Shown piece after piece: positions 7,224 through 17,285 of a stretch of 47,006 nt of DNA. The stretch is taken from IMG/VR virus record IMGVR_UViG_2925903241_000004; one strand, written 5' to 3'. Source of the stretch: a virus. Its lineage: Duplodnaviria > Heunggongvirae > Uroviricota > Caudoviricetes. The position numbers and the translations under genes were made by a program. Under the pieces are notes generated by a model. It made no database searches. It was not told the DNA's origin and saw only the letters and a list, made by a program, of their open reading frames with translations. The first letter of the stretch is position 1. Each line of letters starts with the position of its first letter.

Positions 7224-7294
7224 CTGACAATAGTCATATCGAATCGCTTCCGGCAACTCGTGAGTAAAAAGATTCGGTATCAGAAGAGGTGAGT

Positions 7295-8365
7295 ATGGCT
7301 AACGCCTGGCTCAGATTATGGCATGACATGCCAAATGACCCTAAGTGGCGAACAATTGCCAGGGTGTCAGGGCAGCCAATTGCAACAGTGATGGCAGTGT
7401 ATATCCACCTCCTGGTGAGCGCGTCACGAAATGTCACGCGAGGTCACATTGATGTCACGACAGAAGATTTGGCAAGTGCGCTCGACGTGACAGAAGAGGT
7501 AATTGATTCAATTTTGCAGACGATGCAGGGGCGGGTACTTGATGGTGATTTAATCACTGGATGGGAAAAACGCCAGGTGCTGAAAGAGGACAACGGCAAT
7601 ATTTCGCAAACCGCAAAATCTCCGGCAGAGCGCAAGAGGGCGCAGCGAGAGAGGGAAAGAAAGCGGGAACAAAATGGCGATTGTCACGGCGAGTCACGAA
7701 ATGTCACGCACATGTCACGACGAGTCACGACAGATAAAGATACAGATAAAGATACAGATCAAGAAGATCAAAACACTATGGTCCATGGCGTAAAAAACGC
7801 CACGAACCAGGCAGGGGATGTTCAGACCGTCACTCCTGGCCAGCCCGCAGGCACGACACCGGAAGCCGATTCAGCGTATGCGCTGAAAGCCGATTCGGGC
7901 GCTGTGCAGCAGGTGATGACCGCAAGGCAGGAGCAATCACACCAACTTCAGCAGCCTGAAGCCGATTCCGCCATTCAGCGGGAAGCCGATCGGGTAGTCC
8001 CGGAAAACACCGGGCAGCCTGTGGGACGAGTGGATTATCCTGATGTGTTCGAACAGGTCTGGCGGGAATACCCGTTGCGTGCCGGGGCAAACCCGAAGAA
8101 ATCCGCTTTCAGTGCCTGGAAAGCCAGATTACGCGAGGGGGTGCCACCAGAGGCCATGCTGGATGGCGTGAGGCGTTACGCAAGATACCTTGCGGCTACC
8201 GGGAAAACGGGAACGGAATTTGTTCAGCGAGCGACGACGTTTTTTGGACCGGACCGGAATTTTGAAAACCCCTGGCTGCTCCCGGTAAGCGGCACGAACA
8301 ACCAGCGTTGTGTGAATCATATTTCTGAACCGGATAACGAAATTCCGCCGGGCTTCAGGGGGTAA
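7295..8365 (+). CDS. Phage replication initiation protein (O-like), contains internal origin iterons
   Basis: 356-aa ORF from ATG 7295 (GAGG RBS); conserved N-terminal region common to lambdoid replication initiators; iterons and an AT-rich tract lie inside the coding sequence, as ori-lambda lies inside O. Confidence 0.6.
   Translation: MANAWLRLWHDMPNDPKWRTIARVSGQPIATVMAVYIHLLVSASRNVTRGHIDVTTEDLASALDVTEEVIDSILQTMQGRVLDGDLITGWEKRQVLKEDNGNISQTAKSPAERKRAQRERERKREQNGDCHGESRNVTHMSRRVTTDKDTDKDTDQEDQNTMVHGVKNATNQAGDVQTVTPGQPAGTTPEADSAYALKADSGAVQQVMTARQEQSHQLQQPEADSAIQREADRVVPENTGQPVGRVDYPDVFEQVWREYPLRAGANPKKSAFSAWKARLREGVPPEAMLDGVRRYARYLAATGKTGTEFVQRATTFFGPDRNFENPWLLPVSGTNNQRCVNHISEPDNEIPPGFRG
7423..7463 (+). 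repeat. Origin iteron set 1 (4 x GTCACR at ~10-bp phasing)
   Basis: GTCACG at 7423 and 7433, GTCACA at 7443, GTCACG at 7454; helically phased direct repeats inside the replication gene. Confidence 0.6.
7683..7780 (+). repeat. Origin iteron set 2 (5 x GTCACG at ~10-bp phasing) plus adjacent AT-rich tandem repeat
   Basis: GTCACG at 7683, 7693, 7703, 7714, 7724, followed by tandem acagataaagat x2 and an A/T-rich stretch (7731-7780) that could act as a DNA-unwinding element. Confidence 0.6.
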
Positions 8366-8405
8366 GTGTTAATTTCTGGTCATGAGGTAATTTTCAGGAG
8401 GGCTT

Positions 8406-8828
8406 GTGGCAAAAGTTTTTACACAAGAAGAGCGGGAAAAAATTAAAGGACAGGTTCTTGAACTCGTACGCCAGAGTGGGCGCGAGACGTTACGACAACT
8501 GGAAGCTAAAACTGGGGCAACAAGATATCTGATGAGCGTTCTGGCCAGAGAGCTGGTTGCCAGTGGCGATGTATACAATTCTGGCTACGGGTTATTCCCG
8601 TCTGAACAGGCTCGTAAAGACTGGCAAAATGCCCGCAAAAAATTATCGAGGGCAAAGCTGAAGAAACCGGTTGTGGTTGATCCGGACCTTATCTGGTCGT
8701 TACCTGACGGAGAAATACGTCGCTACGACAGTCGCCTAAACATAATCTGTCGCGAGTGCCGGAAGAGTGAAGCTATGCAGCGTGTACTGGCTTTCTATCA
8801 GGGTAATTTTCAGGAGGCGGTACTGTGA
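8406..8828 (+). CDS. Hypothetical early-region protein
   Basis: 140-aa ORF with GTG start preceded by AGGAGG; no recognisable family from sequence alone. Confidence 0.5.
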   Translation: MAKVFTQEEREKIKGQVLELVRQSGRETLRQLEAKTGATRYLMSVLARELVASGDVYNSGYGLFPSEQARKDWQNARKKLSRAKLKKPVVVDPDLIWSLPDGEIRRYDSRLNIICRECRKSEAMQRVLAFYQGNFQEAVL

Positions 8829-8885
8829 GTGAAATTAGCTATCAGGCTTCAATTACCGCTGGCATTCGCATCAAAGGAGAGGAGC

Positions 8886-9242
8886 ATGGAAATAAAACCA
8901 GAGGATGAGTTAAGCAATATCGTTTTATTTCCGGTAAAAGAGGATGACCCTCGTAATCAGGTTAATTTTCTTTATGAGCCATCGGAAAGACCATATTGTC
9001 ATCACGCCTCTGTCCGGGTTGACGAAAAAGAGCGTCAGGTCCGCTGTAAAATCTGCGGTGCAGTTGTGGAGCCATTTGACTGGATGCTCTCTGTGGCGAA
9101 AAGAGAAACCAGACTGGCAGATGATGTAAGGCTCTTGCGTCAGGAGGAGCGGGAAAGGCGAAAAAATATAGAAAAGCTAATTCAGATTGAGCGTAACGCG
9201 AAAGCGCGGATACGCAGGGCGACAAAATCCAGAACTGAATAA
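8886..9242 (+). CDS. Hypothetical protein with CxxC...CxxC motif and basic C-terminal helix
   Basis: 118-aa ORF from ATG 8886 with AGGAGAGGAG RBS; CHH...CKICG cysteine/histidine cluster; Arg/Glu-rich C-terminus. Confidence 0.5.
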   Translation: MEIKPEDELSNIVLFPVKEDDPRNQVNFLYEPSERPYCHHASVRVDEKERQVRCKICGAVVEPFDWMLSVAKRETRLADDVRLLRQEERERRKNIEKLIQIERNAKARIRRATKSRTE

Positions 9243-9335
9243 TTAAATTTAGCTCTGTTAAAAATTTAATCCTTAACCGGAGGGATTTCTGCACCCTCAG
9301 AACATCAGGAGGCCGCCCGAAAGGGCGGTAGTTAA

Positions 9336-9518
9336 ATGCGAAAGTTTAAAATAATTATTGAAACGGGAATAGCCGGTGGAGATTTCGAGGATGAATTCGA
9401 AGTGGATGATGATGCGACGCCTGATGAAATACATGACGAAGCAAAAGATATTTTCTTTAACTACTGCAATTACTCATATCACGAAATAAAAGACGAAGAG
9501 GAAGAACAAAATGGCTGA
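9336..9518 (+). CDS. Small highly acidic protein
   Basis: 60-aa ORF, very rich in Asp/Glu (EDEFEVDDDATPDEIHDE...DEEEEQNG); a stem-loop (ggccgcccgaaagggcgg) lies between an AGGAGG and the ATG. Confidence 0.45.
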   Translation: MRKFKIIIETGIAGGDFEDEFEVDDDATPDEIHDEAKDIFFNYCNYSYHEIKDEEEEQNG

Positions 9519-9687
9519 TTTTGGTTCAACTAAATACAACGTCAGTTTTGAAGAATGGCATGAACTGTTAATGGACTATGCAGAGTTACGTGGTGGCAGT
9601 GCTGCTGATGCTGAAGCATGGCGTGATGATTATGAAGCAGGAAAAACTCCGGTCGAAGCATATTGTGATGAGTGGGGCGATGAATGA
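9511..9687 (+). CDS. Small acidic protein
   Basis: 58-aa ORF found by eye (below the track's length cutoff): MADFGSTKYNVSFEEWHELLMDYAELRGGSAADAEAWRDDYEAGKTPVEAYCDEWGDE; AGAGGAAG RBS; start overlaps the previous stop. Confidence 0.4.
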   Translation: MADFGSTKYNVSFEEWHELLMDYAELRGGSAADAEAWRDDYEAGKTPVEAYCDEWGDE

Positions 9688-9885
9688 GCGAGGTTAATTA
9701 TCAGGAAGGGCATGAAACGGCGGGGCAAGCAAAAACAGTGGCATGGCGATATCGCTACGTGAAAAAAAAGGCGTTACGGACTTTCAGGAGAAGTAGTGGT
9801 TGCGTATTACCGTGAAGGAGATCGGTGAGTAACATCGATGGAGATCGGTTCGTGTCACTTTCACAGAACCGTTTTTAAATTACCT

Positions 9886-10635
9886 TCACTGATCTCCTTC
9901 GGTCAACGGAGATTGTATTTTCCGCATTGATTCTCCTTTAAGTTCGATCTTGATACTGCCATGAACCAGTCGATCTAGGATGGCATCCGCATGTGTGGAG
10001 TCTCCGATCATTTTGTACCAGTTTTCCACCGGCAACTGGCTCACTACGATGATTGAGCCTCGTTGGTACATCAGATCCACTATTTCCAGCAGGTCGCTAC
10101 GCTGTTCTGATGAGAGAGGTTCCAGCCCCCAGTCATCCAGAAGCAGCAGATCGCTATTATTCAGCCTGGTCAAAAGTTTGCTGTATCTTCCATCAGCATG
10201 CCCCTGATAGCACTGTTCCATCAGCGCTTTAAGGCGATAATAGTAGACCTTGTATCCCTGTCGGCAGGCATTATGACCAAGTGCACATGCCAGGAACGTT
10301 TTACCGCTGCCGGTGGCCCCGGTCAGTAAAATATTTTGTTTCAGGGTTAACCAGTTTCCCTGACTGAGTGAACGGATGAGGGCCCTGTCCAGCCCTCTAT
10401 TGTTACGATAATCCAGCTTTGATAACTCAGCATTAAGTCTGAACCGTGCATGTTTGATCAGACGCTCTGCCTTCCTGTTTTCACGGCAGGTTAGTTCTTC
10501 TGCTGTCAGTAATGACAGGCGTTCTTCGAAGCCCAGCTCCTGGTATGTGCCCGGTTGAGCAAGTTGCTTTTTAAGCGCATCACGGAAGCCGGTGAGTTTA
10601 AGTGCGGTCAGTTGTTCGTAAAGATGATTCATCAT
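9886..10635 (-). CDS. istB: IS21-family helper ATPase IstB
   Basis: 249-aa ORF with Walker A (GATGSGKT) and DnaC/IstB-like layout; immediately downstream of istA. Confidence 0.9.
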   Translation of the reverse strand: MMNHLYEQLTALKLTGFRDALKKQLAQPGTYQELGFEERLSLLTAEELTCRENRKAERLIKHARFRLNAELSKLDYRNNRGLDRALIRSLSQGNWLTLKQNILLTGATGSGKTFLACALGHNACRQGYKVYYYRLKALMEQCYQGHADGRYSKLLTRLNNSDLLLLDDWGLEPLSSEQRSDLLEIVDLMYQRGSIIVVSQLPVENWYKMIGDSTHADAILDRLVHGSIKIELKGESMRKIQSPLTEGDQ

Positions 10636-10646
10636 TGGATCCCGTA

Positions 10647-12188
10647 TCAGTGGTAATACTCACTGCCGCGTACGTTTTCGTGTTCCATCGTGGATAACAG
10701 ATCTGGTTTTGGATCCTGAACAGGTTGTTTATCCAGACCTTTTTCCAGGATCGATTTAATACCTGACAGACGCCATACCTTTGTTTCCAGAGCTCTTGCA
10801 CATGCTGCATTAAGTCTGGCTTTACTGTATTTTTTATGAAGGTTCAGGAGTCCAAGGCAGAAGCGATAGCTTTGTTCCGGATGTGGACGAGAGTTCAGTA
10901 TATGAAGCACATAACTATGAGTTTCACTGCCTATGTGCCCCGCCCATTCCAGAAGACGCTCTGGCGTCCAGGTGGCATGCTGTCGATGAGCTTCAGGCAT
11001 GTGCTCGTTGCGGGTACTGTAGCCATAAGTACGCTTGCGCGGGTGCACAGCAACCTCCTGCCCCTGATTGAAGAGTCTTACCAGTTCTCCGGAGATCCAT
11101 GCTTCCAGTTGCTGGCCTAACAGCGAACATGGAACCGAGTAGTAATGTTTGTCGATTTCCACGTGGTAATCGGCATGAACTCTGACTTTCTTCACCAGGG
11201 TGTAACTGTAACTGGCTTCAGGAAGAGGCTTCAGTGCGGGTTTATCAAGCTGGATGAAGAGTTCTGCACGTGAATAACCCAACTTCTGCATTATTTTGTT
11301 ATTCAGTCTTTCCAGCAACTCCCGAATGCGCTGATTAAGCGATGCAAGGCTGTAGAAGATCTCATGCCTGATTCGGGCCATGATCCAGCGTTCAACAACC
11401 TGAACGCCAACTTCAGCTTTGGCTTTATCTTTCGGTTTACGTGGCCGCGCAGGCAAAACTGCGACATTATAATGCTCAAGCATCTGCTGGTAGGTAGGGT
11501 TAACGTCAGGATCATACTTACATGCCCTGGATGTGGCGCTTTTCAGATTGTCCGGAACAACAAGTTCAGGAACGCCACCCAACCACTGGAAGCAGCGAAC
11601 ATGACTCATCACCCAGTCTTCAAGCTGCTGAGACCAGGTGGCCTCTGCCCATGTGTAACTTGATGCCCCGAGAACAGCTACGATGACCTGAGCAGTTCTT
11701 ATTTCTCCGGTCTCAGGGTCGGTAACGCCAACGGTAGGTCCACAGTAATCAACGAAAAGTTTTTCGCCAGCTTTATGTACCTGACGCATTGATGGTGAAG
11801 TGGTTTTGAGCCATTCACGGTACATCCGGCAGTAATGGTTATAGCTGTAAAAACCGCCTGGATTACGCTCACAGTATTCTTCCCAGAGTAGCTGCAGCGT
11901 CACGCATTTATTACGCAGTTCCCGGTGTACTGTAGCCCAGTCAGGCAGAGAGTGCTTCTTCATCTTAACCTGGGTCTGAAGGAACGCATGTTTTAGTTTT
12001 GTATCATCCCATCCTGTAGGTAAGGGCCACTGCTTTATGCCAAGTTGAGCCGCCCGATTAGCATATCTGGATACAACGGAAGGGGAGATTGCAAGACTAC
12101 GACCAATTTGTCGATGGCTGAGTCCAACACCGTATTTAAGCCTAAGAATTTCTTTAAGTTTTCTCATAGAAATTGGAACTGTTGGCAT
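10647..12188 (-). CDS. istA: IS21-family transposase IstA
   Basis: 513-aa ORF with N-terminal HTH and DDE integrase-core-like region; paired with istB as in IS21-family elements. Confidence 0.9.
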   Translation of the reverse strand: MPTVPISMRKLKEILRLKYGVGLSHRQIGRSLAISPSVVSRYANRAAQLGIKQWPLPTGWDDTKLKHAFLQTQVKMKKHSLPDWATVHRELRNKCVTLQLLWEEYCERNPGGFYSYNHYCRMYREWLKTTSPSMRQVHKAGEKLFVDYCGPTVGVTDPETGEIRTAQVIVAVLGASSYTWAEATWSQQLEDWVMSHVRCFQWLGGVPELVVPDNLKSATSRACKYDPDVNPTYQQMLEHYNVAVLPARPRKPKDKAKAEVGVQVVERWIMARIRHEIFYSLASLNQRIRELLERLNNKIMQKLGYSRAELFIQLDKPALKPLPEASYSYTLVKKVRVHADYHVEIDKHYYSVPCSLLGQQLEAWISGELVRLFNQGQEVAVHPRKRTYGYSTRNEHMPEAHRQHATWTPERLLEWAGHIGSETHSYVLHILNSRPHPEQSYRFCLGLLNLHKKYSKARLNAACARALETKVWRLSGIKSILEKGLDKQPVQDPKPDLLSTMEHENVRGSEYYH

Positions 12189-12759
12189 AGGTATCCTTTA
12201 CCGGAATGGCAAAAGATACAGATCAACACACCTGTGAAGTTCCAATAACATTGATGGAGATCACTGAATAACAAAATGAGTCAAAAGTGATCTCCATCGA
12301 TGTTATTCAGCGATCTGTTCAAATGTTATTACCCGATCTCGATGGAAGTTATTGAGTGATCTCCTTTCATGAAAATACGCAGTAGTGGTCTGGTGACTGG
12401 AAATATGTACCGAAAAAAGAGGATTGTAACGACAGGCCGAACTATGAAATTCAGGCCTTATTCACTGCCCCGCCAGTCCCGGTTACATCAGAAGAACTGG
12501 TTAAAGCTGTGCACTTTTATGAACAACTAAAACGCGAAAATCCACCAGCATCCGGAAACCTGATTACAGATTCCCAGATAAGGCAATGAGCTACCTGGCG
12601 CAGAACGGGCTGATAAGTATGGGGAATGTTTTACGATGAATATTTAGACTAAAGAGTTTGTAACGCTATGTAAGTGATTTTTTCTGGTTTAGATATTTAT
12701 ATGTTCGGCCAAATTGAGGTGTGTTTAAATGTAATTGCACATTGATTGTAGGAGGAATA

Positions 12760-16202: not shown

Positions 16203-16278
16203 GGCCCTTTAGCTCAGTGGTGAGAGCGAGCGACTCATAATCGCCAGGTCGCTGGTTCAAATCCAGCAAGGGCCACCA
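16203..16278 (+). tRNA. ileZ: tRNA with anticodon CAT, tRNA-Ile2 (ileZ/ileX-like) by similarity
   Basis: 76-nt cloverleaf folded by hand: acceptor GGCCCTT/AAGGGCC, D-stem GCTC/GAGC, anticodon loop CTCATAA, T-arm GCTGG-TTCAAAT-CCAGC, discriminator A and encoded CCA. Confidence 0.9.
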
Positions 16279-16599: not shown

Positions 16600-16820
16600 T
16601 CACAATTCCACAGCTTGATGATTGTCTGGCTGCCGGAGAATTTGTTAAAAATTACATCGCATGGTGAATCCCCCTCAGCGGCGGGGCATCTGGCAAAGTG
16701 TATGATCCAGAGAACATGCAAATTCAGTAGACAGGCTGAATTTACCGGGAGGCCCCTGGCACCATGCGACAGACAGAAATTAGGCTATACTTCAGCCCCT
16801 CTCCGGAGGGGCTTTTCTGT
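16600..16820 (+). repeat. Repeat unit A (promoter-like element ... strong terminator)
   Basis: Shares with unit B the blocks attgtctggc..cgg.ga.tttgttaaaaa..cgcatggtgaatccccct, gaattcaccgggaggc.cc.ggcaccatgc and terminal cagcccctctccggaggggct hairpin plus T-run. Confidence 0.5.
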
Positions 16821-17069
16821 GCAGGATGTGTCACAGTTTCCTGAATTCTGAGTACTGTCCTGTTACTCAGGGTGCTATATTTTCTGACGTGATGAAAGTC
16901 TGCCGGAAGGCGGAACGTATCGGAAATGACCCAGTAGAGAAAACGTTGACTCAGATACCGATGCTGAGTTACCGGGAAACCGGCATCACATGACCGCTAT
17001 CCTTCCAGGCTCGCTCCGGCGGGCCTTTTTACTGCAGAAAACAGTTTTCCCGTAAAATGCCACGTTGCT

Positions 17070-17285
17070 CATAATTCAGGCTGGCGATTATTGTCTGGCC
17101 GGCGGGAAGTTTGTTAAAAAATTTCGCATGGTGAATCCCCCTGTGCGGAGGGGTAATCAGCGAGTAGGTATATGGGATAATCGCGGATTCAGGTGCTGGT
17201 ACTGAATTCACCGGGAGGCACCCGGCACCATGCAATGGCACATAGCGCCACTCTCCAGCCCCTCTCCGGAGGGGCTGTTTATATT
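17070..17285 (+). repeat. Repeat unit B (second diverged copy of unit A)
   Basis: Same conserved blocks as unit A with different internal sequence; ends in an identical GCCCCTC-TCCG-GAGGGGC hairpin at 17258-17282. Confidence 0.5.

Follow-up and report, generated by a model that had tools for sequence, protein, structure and literature searches.

ORF1 and ORF2, two adjacent and very acidic small open reading frames in the early region of the 47,006-nt stretch of viral DNA analysed here (the window), are real genes under purifying selection and, as their distribution indicates, independent modules that belong to two separate phage families. The original prediction of two such frames, of 60 and 58 aa, stands in coordinates (Table 1), lengths, and charge. 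As for their role, it is possible, although short of probable, that each protein is a stand-alone acidic decoy acting on a basic, nucleic-acid-binding surface of a host protein; both the decoy mechanism and the class of the target are what we infer. ORF1 and ORF2 would be accessory genes, independent of each other, in a lambdoid prophage of the Rac/Qin type, transcribed jointly with the replication genes from the rightward early (pR-type) operon. ORF1 would probably be translated through a split ribosome-binding site, in which a hairpin brings AGGAGG to 7 nt of the ATG, and ORF2 would be translated by coupling to ORF1. Each gene would yield a compact, strongly acidic domain, beta-beta-alpha with an acidic tail for ORF1 and a three-helix bundle for ORF2, and each domain would act during early lytic development as an electrostatic decoy, occupying and so blocking a positively charged site where a host protein binds nucleic acid. 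Defence nucleases are one class to which the target may belong. The genes are ordinary in that they are very common members of catalogued families, one of which is already a Pfam DUF.

Locus and operon structure

The region belongs to a Rac/Qin-type lambdoid prophage of E. coli that is inserted beside potC, and several ST167-like chromosomes match it at 100% identity. Its rightward early operon comprises, 5' to 3', the genes for a cro-like protein, a YdaT-family protein, the replication initiator, DUF977, the Zn-ribbon protein, ORF1, ORF2, and ORF3, with hokD, DUF968, RusA, and the antiterminator Q farther downstream; this order bears out the predicted placement of both ORFs downstream of the replication genes in the early region. 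Neither a sigma-70-like promoter or terminator on the coding strand nor an Rfam family was found within positions 8300–9900; therefore, ORF1 and ORF2 are considered internal members of the operon. All that the consensus scan of the same interval gave was one weak promoter-like and one weak terminator-like site on the minus strand, not above the level of shuffled sequences.

Table 1. Coordinates of the features of the ORF1–ORF2 locus in the window
Feature	Coordinates	Strand	Details
Replication initiator	7289–8365		PHROG 3729
DUF977 / 'Ren-like' protein	8406–8828		
Zn-ribbon/coiled-coil basic protein	8886–9242	+	118 aa; PHROG 1621
AGGAGG Shine-Dalgarno (SD) of ORF1	9307–9312	+	23 nt upstream of the ORF1 ATG
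Hairpin CCGCCC-GAAA-GGGCGG	9313–9328	+	−15.5 kcal/mol; wholly in the SD–ATG spacer; stem CCGCCC 9313–9318, loop GAAA 9319–9322, stem GGGCGG 9323–9328, then 7 nt to ATG 9336
ORF1, DUF7167 family protein	9336–9518	+	60 aa; net charge −15
GAGGA Shine-Dalgarno of ORF2	9498–9502	+	made by Glu codons of the ORF1 acidic tail; 8 nt before ATG 9511
ORF2	9511–9687	+	58 aa; net charge −12
ORF3 remnant	9684–9800	+	truncated by ISEc12
ISEc12 (IS21 family; istA, istB)	9801–12381	−	8-bp target duplication GTAGTGGT

The upstream neighbours of ORF1 and ORF2 encode basic proteins (pI 9.4–9.7). The Zn-ribbon gene accompanies the ORF1–ORF2 cassette in some contexts, e.g., in the Stx2a phage ArgO145, and a megablast search matched the three genes as one block in Stx phages at ~96% identity. 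On the downstream side, the ATG of ORF3 overlaps the stop codon of ORF2 (ATGA), and the N-terminus of ORF3 resembles those of Ead/Ea22-like and DUF551 proteins. ISEc12 lies outside the cassette and marks its downstream limit in this window.

Selection on the two genes and conservation of their charge

The window has 162 ORFs that start with ATG and encode 50 aa or more; ORF1 and ORF2 are the two most acidic of them, with a charge density of −0.20 to −0.25 per residue. Comparison of about 30 distinct E. coli prophage alleles with the window copy shows that the differences are overwhelmingly synonymous in both ORFs, pN/pS being 0.03–0.09 for ORF1 and 0–0.09, with one outlier at 0.24, for ORF2. 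Both also have homologs in unrelated phages at 37–60% identity. The low pN/pS values and these homologs place both ORFs above chance.

The net charge is −10 to −15 in seven homologs of ORF1, at identities down to 37%, and each of them ends in an acidic tail that differs in sequence. For the ORF2 family, 96 stand-alone sequences were considered, mostly representatives of clusters at 50% identity; 90 of them are net negative (median −8.5), and ten columns of the alignment are acidic in 58–79% of members, beside a single conserved Arg. Negative charge is a conserved trait of both families, not an effect of local composition; as acidity is kept beyond what identity requires, this supports negative surface charge as a likely part of the function. 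Generally, small phage proteins are often highly acidic, and acidity alone is not diagnostic.

ORF1 and the DUF7167 family

ORF1 is a member of Pfam family PF23768 (DUF7167), with E = 7.9e-15 and 55.1 bits against a cut-off of 24.4; the match is full-length, residues 2–53 of ORF1 being aligned with positions 1–60 of the 60-position model. It also matches PHROG 1997 (E = 9e-31), and its RefSeq name is 'DUF7167 family protein' already. Within this family, which has no known function, ORF1 is an ordinary member with no distinguishing difference. It contains 20 Asp and Glu residues (33%) and five Lys and Arg residues (pI 4.05). Homologs at 37–70% identity come from a Klebsiella prophage-like phage, Klebsiella Guernseyvirinae, Enterococcus Kochikohdavirus, and Phapecoctavirus-like phages.

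In the AF2 model of ORF1 (mean pLDDT 78.9), a beta-hairpin (residues 2–23) packs on a helix (residues 29–43) and is followed by the acidic tail; the tail and the conserved segment CNY[GS][YF]HE (CNYSYHEI in ORF1) are modelled at lower confidence. A Foldseek search of PDB with this model gave no match at E ≤ 0.001. T7 Gp2, the inhibitor of the host RNA polymerase (PF16857), has a beta-beta-alpha(-beta) topology, and ORF1 resembles it in this topology, in length (about 60 aa), and in acidity, with no profile homology. The assignment of ORF1 as Gp2-like was rejected: hhalign of alignment A6 against T7 Gp2 gave a probability of 0.1% (E = 0.55), and T7 Gp2 itself matches PF16857, whereas ORF1 and two DUF7167 relatives do not. 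The dependence of a lambdoid phage on the host RNA polymerase was also counted against such a role.

ORF2 and its family

ORF2 belongs to PHROG 519 (unknown function; E = 4.5e-23, 83.2 bits), of which it covers only positions 76–137 of the 143 in the profile, and shares this group with CBA120 orf183. No Pfam or NCBIfam model matches ORF2, and the domain is in effect unnamed. With 16 Asp and Glu residues (28%), it has the same pI of 4.05 as ORF1. The AF2 model (pLDDT 87.7) is a Trp-rich three-helix bundle with helices at residues 13–27, 34–42, and 47–55; the near-invariant core is formed by F13, W16, L20, A24, W37, Y41, A50, W/Y51, and W55, and the exposed faces of the helices are lined with Asp and Glu. 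The family motif is F..W[HY]..L...A...GGSAADA.AWR.DY..G.TP..AW.DEWG.

Relatives of ORF2 are found in about 200 phage records, the majority of them from Ackermannviridae. When 1.84 billion representative proteins were searched exhaustively with a profile, only 128 clusters at 50% identity were obtained. Nearly all of them are stand-alone proteins of 50–70 aa, and N- or C-terminal fusions to unrelated domains, e.g., to Mu GemA, are rare; this architecture gives the domain the look of a portable binding module. One of the searches used a fused alignment of both families, which served ORF2 and brought few distant relatives of ORF1. The long 'fusions' P0167–P0171, P0152, and P0168 were rejected as gene-calling frameshift or read-through artefacts, and P0126 was rejected as a chimera with a SIS-domain protein sharing the GGSAADA string.

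Genomic contexts

The E. coli cassette comprises the SD, the hairpin, ORF1, and ORF2. Of 5426 complete E. coli genomes, 1748 (32%) carry it, almost always on the chromosome and in at most four copies per genome. ORF1 and ORF2 are always adjacent in E. coli prophages; at least 80% of the 391-nt segment with both genes is carried by 1751 of the 1915 matching records, and ORF2 is intact behind ORF1 in 77 of 79 loci. This adjacency, together with translational coupling, would fit two subunits of one obligate complex. However, each gene occurs alone in lineages outside E. coli, which largely refutes this reading and is the ground for its rejection, and the acidity of both partners does not favour a tight heterodimer; hence, an obligate complex is highly improbable. 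Nor are the two proteins a functional pair, given the occurrence of each gene without the other outside E. coli.

ORF1 without ORF2 is found in Klebsiella, Enterococcus, and Phapecoctavirus-type phages. In Klebsiella Guernseyvirinae, the DUF7167 gene is directly upstream of the genes for a DUF2800/PD-(D/E)XK exonuclease and a Gp2.5-like annealing protein; in Phapecoctavirus-like phages, the ORF1 family gene lies within a Ter cluster. ORF2 without ORF1 is placed after the major capsid gene in Ackermannviridae; in Enterobacter prophages, either behind an Ead/Ea22-like gene adjoining xis and int or within the nin region; at the end of gpA, overlapping it, beside the variable hotspot ahead of the portal gene in Salmonella P2-like prophages; next to HU-like genes (two loci), or fused to GemA, with Gam and Mor nearby, in Mu-like early regions; next to SocA_Panacea antitoxin-domain genes in environmental contigs; and downstream of DUF1187 in some enterobacterial elements.

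The cassette with both genes is not confined to one place either. In ArgO145, the Zn-ribbon–ORF1–ORF2 block belongs to the early-left region, where it is found amid Ead/Ea22-like genes by xis and int and has an orphan DNA methyltransferase and an anti-repressor in its vicinity. What all these contexts share is a placement among early or accessory genes, without any specific partner; across the surveyed loci of both families, the contexts are heterogeneous and no recurrent neighbour hints at a target.

Possible functions

Searches of Pfam, NCBIfam, PADLOC, and PDB sequences gave no match of known function for ORF1 or ORF2. DUF7167 is the sole family at E ≤ 1 in the Pfam scan of both ORFs; PADLOC, which contains models of defence-system proteins only, returned 0 families for the two ORFs and likewise for two relatives of ORF2; when profiles were run against all PDB sequences, only chance-level matches came up, to pRN1 ORF56 and the AnkX insertion domain. 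Neither family is mentioned by any paper in the literature library that was searched, and publications on anti-defence screens there yielded nothing relevant.

The original prediction suggested DNA mimicry, i.e., that one or both proteins inhibit restriction-modification or another DNA-targeting defence, like Ocr, ArdA, and Arn. This is one sub-case of the acidic-decoy view and, taken alone, is unlikely. The charge density and the pI of 4.05, kept across the families, are in line with it, as are the early position, the ORF2 relatives beside the P2 defence hotspot and Panacea-domain genes, and the methyltransferase and anti-repressor near the ArgO145 cassette. Known DNA mimics (T7 Ocr gp0.3, ArdA, T4 Arn, T7 gp5.9, lambda Gam, phi29 p56) are likewise small, early, and of pI about 4; with these and Ugi, ORF1 and ORF2 share the charge and the low pI but no sequence homology, and no fold similarity to a solved DNA mimic was detected. 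Moreover, monomers of 58–60 aa are at the lower limit for imitating a duplex stretch, and there is no consistent co-occurrence with anti-restriction genes. On the other hand, 52–56 aa suffices when the protein is dimeric, as in p56 and gp5.9, and structure prediction did not find an unrelated fold with a known function, the outcome set beforehand as speaking against mimicry.

A wider version of mimicry is less probable still: the ORF2 domain (F..W[HY]..L...A...G.S.AD.DAWR.DY..G.TP..AW; lambdoid, P2-like, Mu-like, and Ackermannviridae phages) would found a new and widespread family of phage nucleic-acid-mimic inhibitors, its target a conserved host DNA-binding protein of defence or repair, and DUF7167 a second, unrelated inhibitor in the same cassette.

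The proximity to xis and int brings in another alternative, in which the proteins would be modulators of development or host physiology of the lambda exo-xis type (Orf60a, Orf61, Orf63, Ea8.5, Ea22, Orf73), which through specific protein-protein contacts would influence transcription, cell division, or the choice between lysis and lysogeny; their acidity would be incidental. The lambda proteins, too, are small early accessory proteins of a hypervariable region, and in ArgO145 and Enterobacter prophages the genes studied here stand among Ead/Ea22-like genes by xis and int; in addition, the ORF2 domain is fused to Mu GemA, a modulator of host gene expression, and adjoins Mor. The exo-xis region is known to influence lysogenisation and induction (PMC3824215, PMC7093339). 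However, neither ORF is homologous to exo-xis proteins; both families occur in strictly virulent phages (Ackermannviridae, Guernseyvirinae, and Kochikohdavirus), for which a lysogeny decision does not arise; and the family-wide conservation of charge argues that charge matters. We regard this role, too, as unlikely, but as a serious rival of the decoy.

Finally, the proteins might be accessory factors of replication or recombination, either acidic partners or chaperones of basic phage DNA-binding proteins (candidates being the replication initiator, DUF977, the Zn-ribbon protein, and HU-like proteins), or RecBCD inhibitors like Gam and gp5.9. The position directly behind the replication genes here, behind O and P in L100, and over the end of gpA in P2-like prophages agrees with this, as do the basic upstream neighbours and the HU-like genes adjoining ORF2 relatives at two Mu-like loci. 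The DUF7167–exonuclease–annealing protein order of Klebsiella Guernseyvirinae recalls T7 5.9-6 and lambda gam-bet-exo. However, the gene behind the major capsid gene in Ackermannviridae and that in the Ter cluster of Phapecoctavirus-like phages do not fit, and the exonuclease association is seen in one lineage only, since the Enterococcus neighbour annotated as 'exonuclease' is in fact a DUF3850/ASCH protein. The link of DUF7167 to an exonuclease, as a Gam/gp5.9 analogue, was thus set aside and kept as a weak lead. An accessory role in replication or recombination is rather improbable, though likewise a serious rival.

We prefer the acidic decoy to these alternatives. Both domains recur in virulent phages of the therapeutic type (Kuttervirus/CBA120-like phages, Klebsiella Taipeivirus, Jersey-like phages, and Enterococcus Kochikohdavirus). 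If one of the proteins is a true inhibitor of a host nuclease, a restriction system, or a nucleoid protein, hundreds of phage genomes would be annotated and a small portable inhibitor gained; if they are not inhibitors, ORF1 and ORF2 are typical 'dark matter' among small early phage genes.

Translation signals

The stem-loop that had been noted between AGGAGG and the first ATG is present; its suggested gating of translation is less convincing, as AGGAG and the ATG are both outside the hairpin. The 6-bp GC hairpin loops out 16 of the 23 nt of the spacer and so reduces the SD–ATG distance from 23 to 7 nt while leaving AGGAG and the ATG free; hence, it more likely enables the initiation of ORF1 than gates it. 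This is the geometry of a split ribosome-binding site, in which the SD is >15 nt from the start codon and a spacer hairpin restores a distance of 5–11 nt. In T4 genes 38 and 25, a spacer hairpin cuts the SD–start distance from 22 to 5 nt and from 27 to 11 nt, respectively, and enhances initiation (PMC3014915). The strong SD that is too distant and the stable spacer hairpin are common to T4 and ORF1, and the resulting spacing of 7 nt compares with 5 and 11 nt in T4; the difference is that T4 is a T-even phage, whereas the putative site of ORF1 belongs to a temperate lambdoid cassette and has weak covariation. From this geometry and the T4 precedent, we infer an enhancing role of the hairpin. 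If true, the ORF1 site, at present a candidate, would be a clean case of the T4 gene 38/25 mechanism outside T-even phages.

Perfect GC-rich hairpins of the same type number nine per strand in the window, vs. 1.6 expected from shuffles. The hairpin of ORF1 is identical to the window copy at 143 of the 195 loci, and its variants all still fold, with energies of −5.4 to −14.2 kcal/mol. Most frequent among them are C-to-U substitutions, which preserve pairing as G-U; a compensatory G-C to A-U exchange is seen in one lineage, and mismatched variants are also present. Covariation is not significant, as it does not exceed shuffled controls. In both upstream contexts that have an SD, ORF1 keeps the SD together with the hairpin; in a third upstream context (three loci), the junction is inside the 5' arm of the hairpin, and AGGAGG is absent. 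Distant homologs have ordinary ribosome-binding sites and no hairpin.

Instead of bridging the spacer, the hairpin might gate translation or act otherwise at the RNA level, for example by being cleaved by RNase III, by stabilising the transcript, or by attenuation; we consider this somewhat unlikely. In the minimum-free-energy fold of positions 9285–9360, CCCUC (9294–9298) does pair with a part of AGGAGG, and the last G of the SD can close the stem through a G-U pair. Against this reading, however, the hairpin itself spans neither AGGAG nor the ATG, and the ArgO145-type upstream context has no CCCUC yet keeps both the SD and the hairpin; a U-tract is lacking, and neither a terminator call nor a match in Rfam was obtained.

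The start codon of ORF2 overlaps the stop codon of ORF1 (ATGGCTGA; 8-nt overlap); because of this overlap and its own GAGGA, ORF2 is expected to be translationally coupled to ORF1.

Upstream Region and Translation Start of ORF1

The acidic genes ORF1 (DUF7167) and ORF2 (PHROG 519) are preceded by a gene for a basic Zn-ribbon/coiled-coil protein, for which two candidate starts are seen, ATG 8886 (RefSeq, 118 aa) versus GTG 8829 (longest ORF). In Stx2a phages this gene is shifted jointly with ORF1 and ORF2 to the early-left region.

In the minimum-free-energy fold, the CCCUC segment is paired with the Shine-Dalgarno sequence of ORF1; GGAGGG, CCCUC, and AGGAGG could form alternative pairings among the three. 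The upstream context of the type found in the Stx2a phage ArgO145 lacks CCCUC.

Features in and around the ORF1–ORF2 cassette and further downstream
Feature	Window position	Strand
Zn-ribbon/coiled-coil basic protein gene (PHROG 1621), upstream of ORF1	8829/8886–9242	
GGAGGG	9280–9285	
CCCUC	9294–9298	
AGGAGG, Shine-Dalgarno sequence of ORF1	9307–9312	
ISEc12 (IS21 family)	9801–12381	minus (both genes)
istB of ISEc12	9886–10635	minus
istA of ISEc12	10647–12188	minus
Tandem duplication, ~467 bp	16617–17280	

Insertion and Duplication Downstream of the Cassette

ISEc12, an insertion that is absent from related genomes, breaks the cassette's third small ORF. The element has terminal inverted repeats TGCGTATT and AATACGCA and is flanked by an 8-bp target duplication, GTAGTGGT, at 9793–9800 and 12382–12389.

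Within the ~467-bp tandem duplication, which lies further downstream, after the antiterminator Q gene and tRNA-Met (16203–16278), terminator-like hairpins occur three times: GCCCCTCTCCGGAGGGGC is present at both 16790 and 17253, and the hairpin at 17003 is a diverged copy.

Atypical and Doubtful Records

The Escherichia coli cassette is also found, at 94–98% identity, in a metagenome-assembled genome labeled "Collinsella sp." (L016) and in PP818812.1, "Actinobacillus phage vB_Apl-pPE4"; these two records probably reflect errors of binning or host labeling rather than the true host range. The copy from Shigella flexneri (L017, CP182557.1, 4001–4360) has premature stop codons in both ORF1 and ORF2, and its Shine-Dalgarno sequence and hairpin are unbroken.

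The "long forms" of ORF1 and ORF2 present in databases (P0169–P0171, P0167, P0152, P0168, and P0126) were rejected as artefacts. A TAA-to-GAA variant immediately before the ORF1 ATG allows gene prediction to run ORF1 further upstream, across the hairpin, and the extended product reads ...QEAVRKGGSE-M; other long forms are frameshift read-throughs, and P0126 is a chimera with a SIS-domain protein having the same GGSAADA string.

Both Families in Other Elements

In Phapecoctavirus-like phages (L010, L011, and L238–L240), a DUF7167 homolog lies inside a tellurite-resistance-type cluster, surrounded by genes for TerC, SprT-like, TelA, vWA-TerF-like, and TerD proteins.

In Salmonella P2-like prophages (L104–L108, 3001–3189), the replication gene gpA overlaps at its 3' end with a gene of the ORF2 family, which borders the variable hotspot preceding the portal gene; in L105, this hotspot is occupied by an nSTAND1/AAA ATPase. 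Among other loci (L230–L232, L234, and L236), one or two genes with the SocA_Panacea antitoxin domain are located directly downstream of ORF2-family genes in environmental phage contigs. In Mu-like early regions, the ORF2-family genes either adjoin genes for HU-like proteins or form a fusion with GemA, with Gam and Mor nearby.
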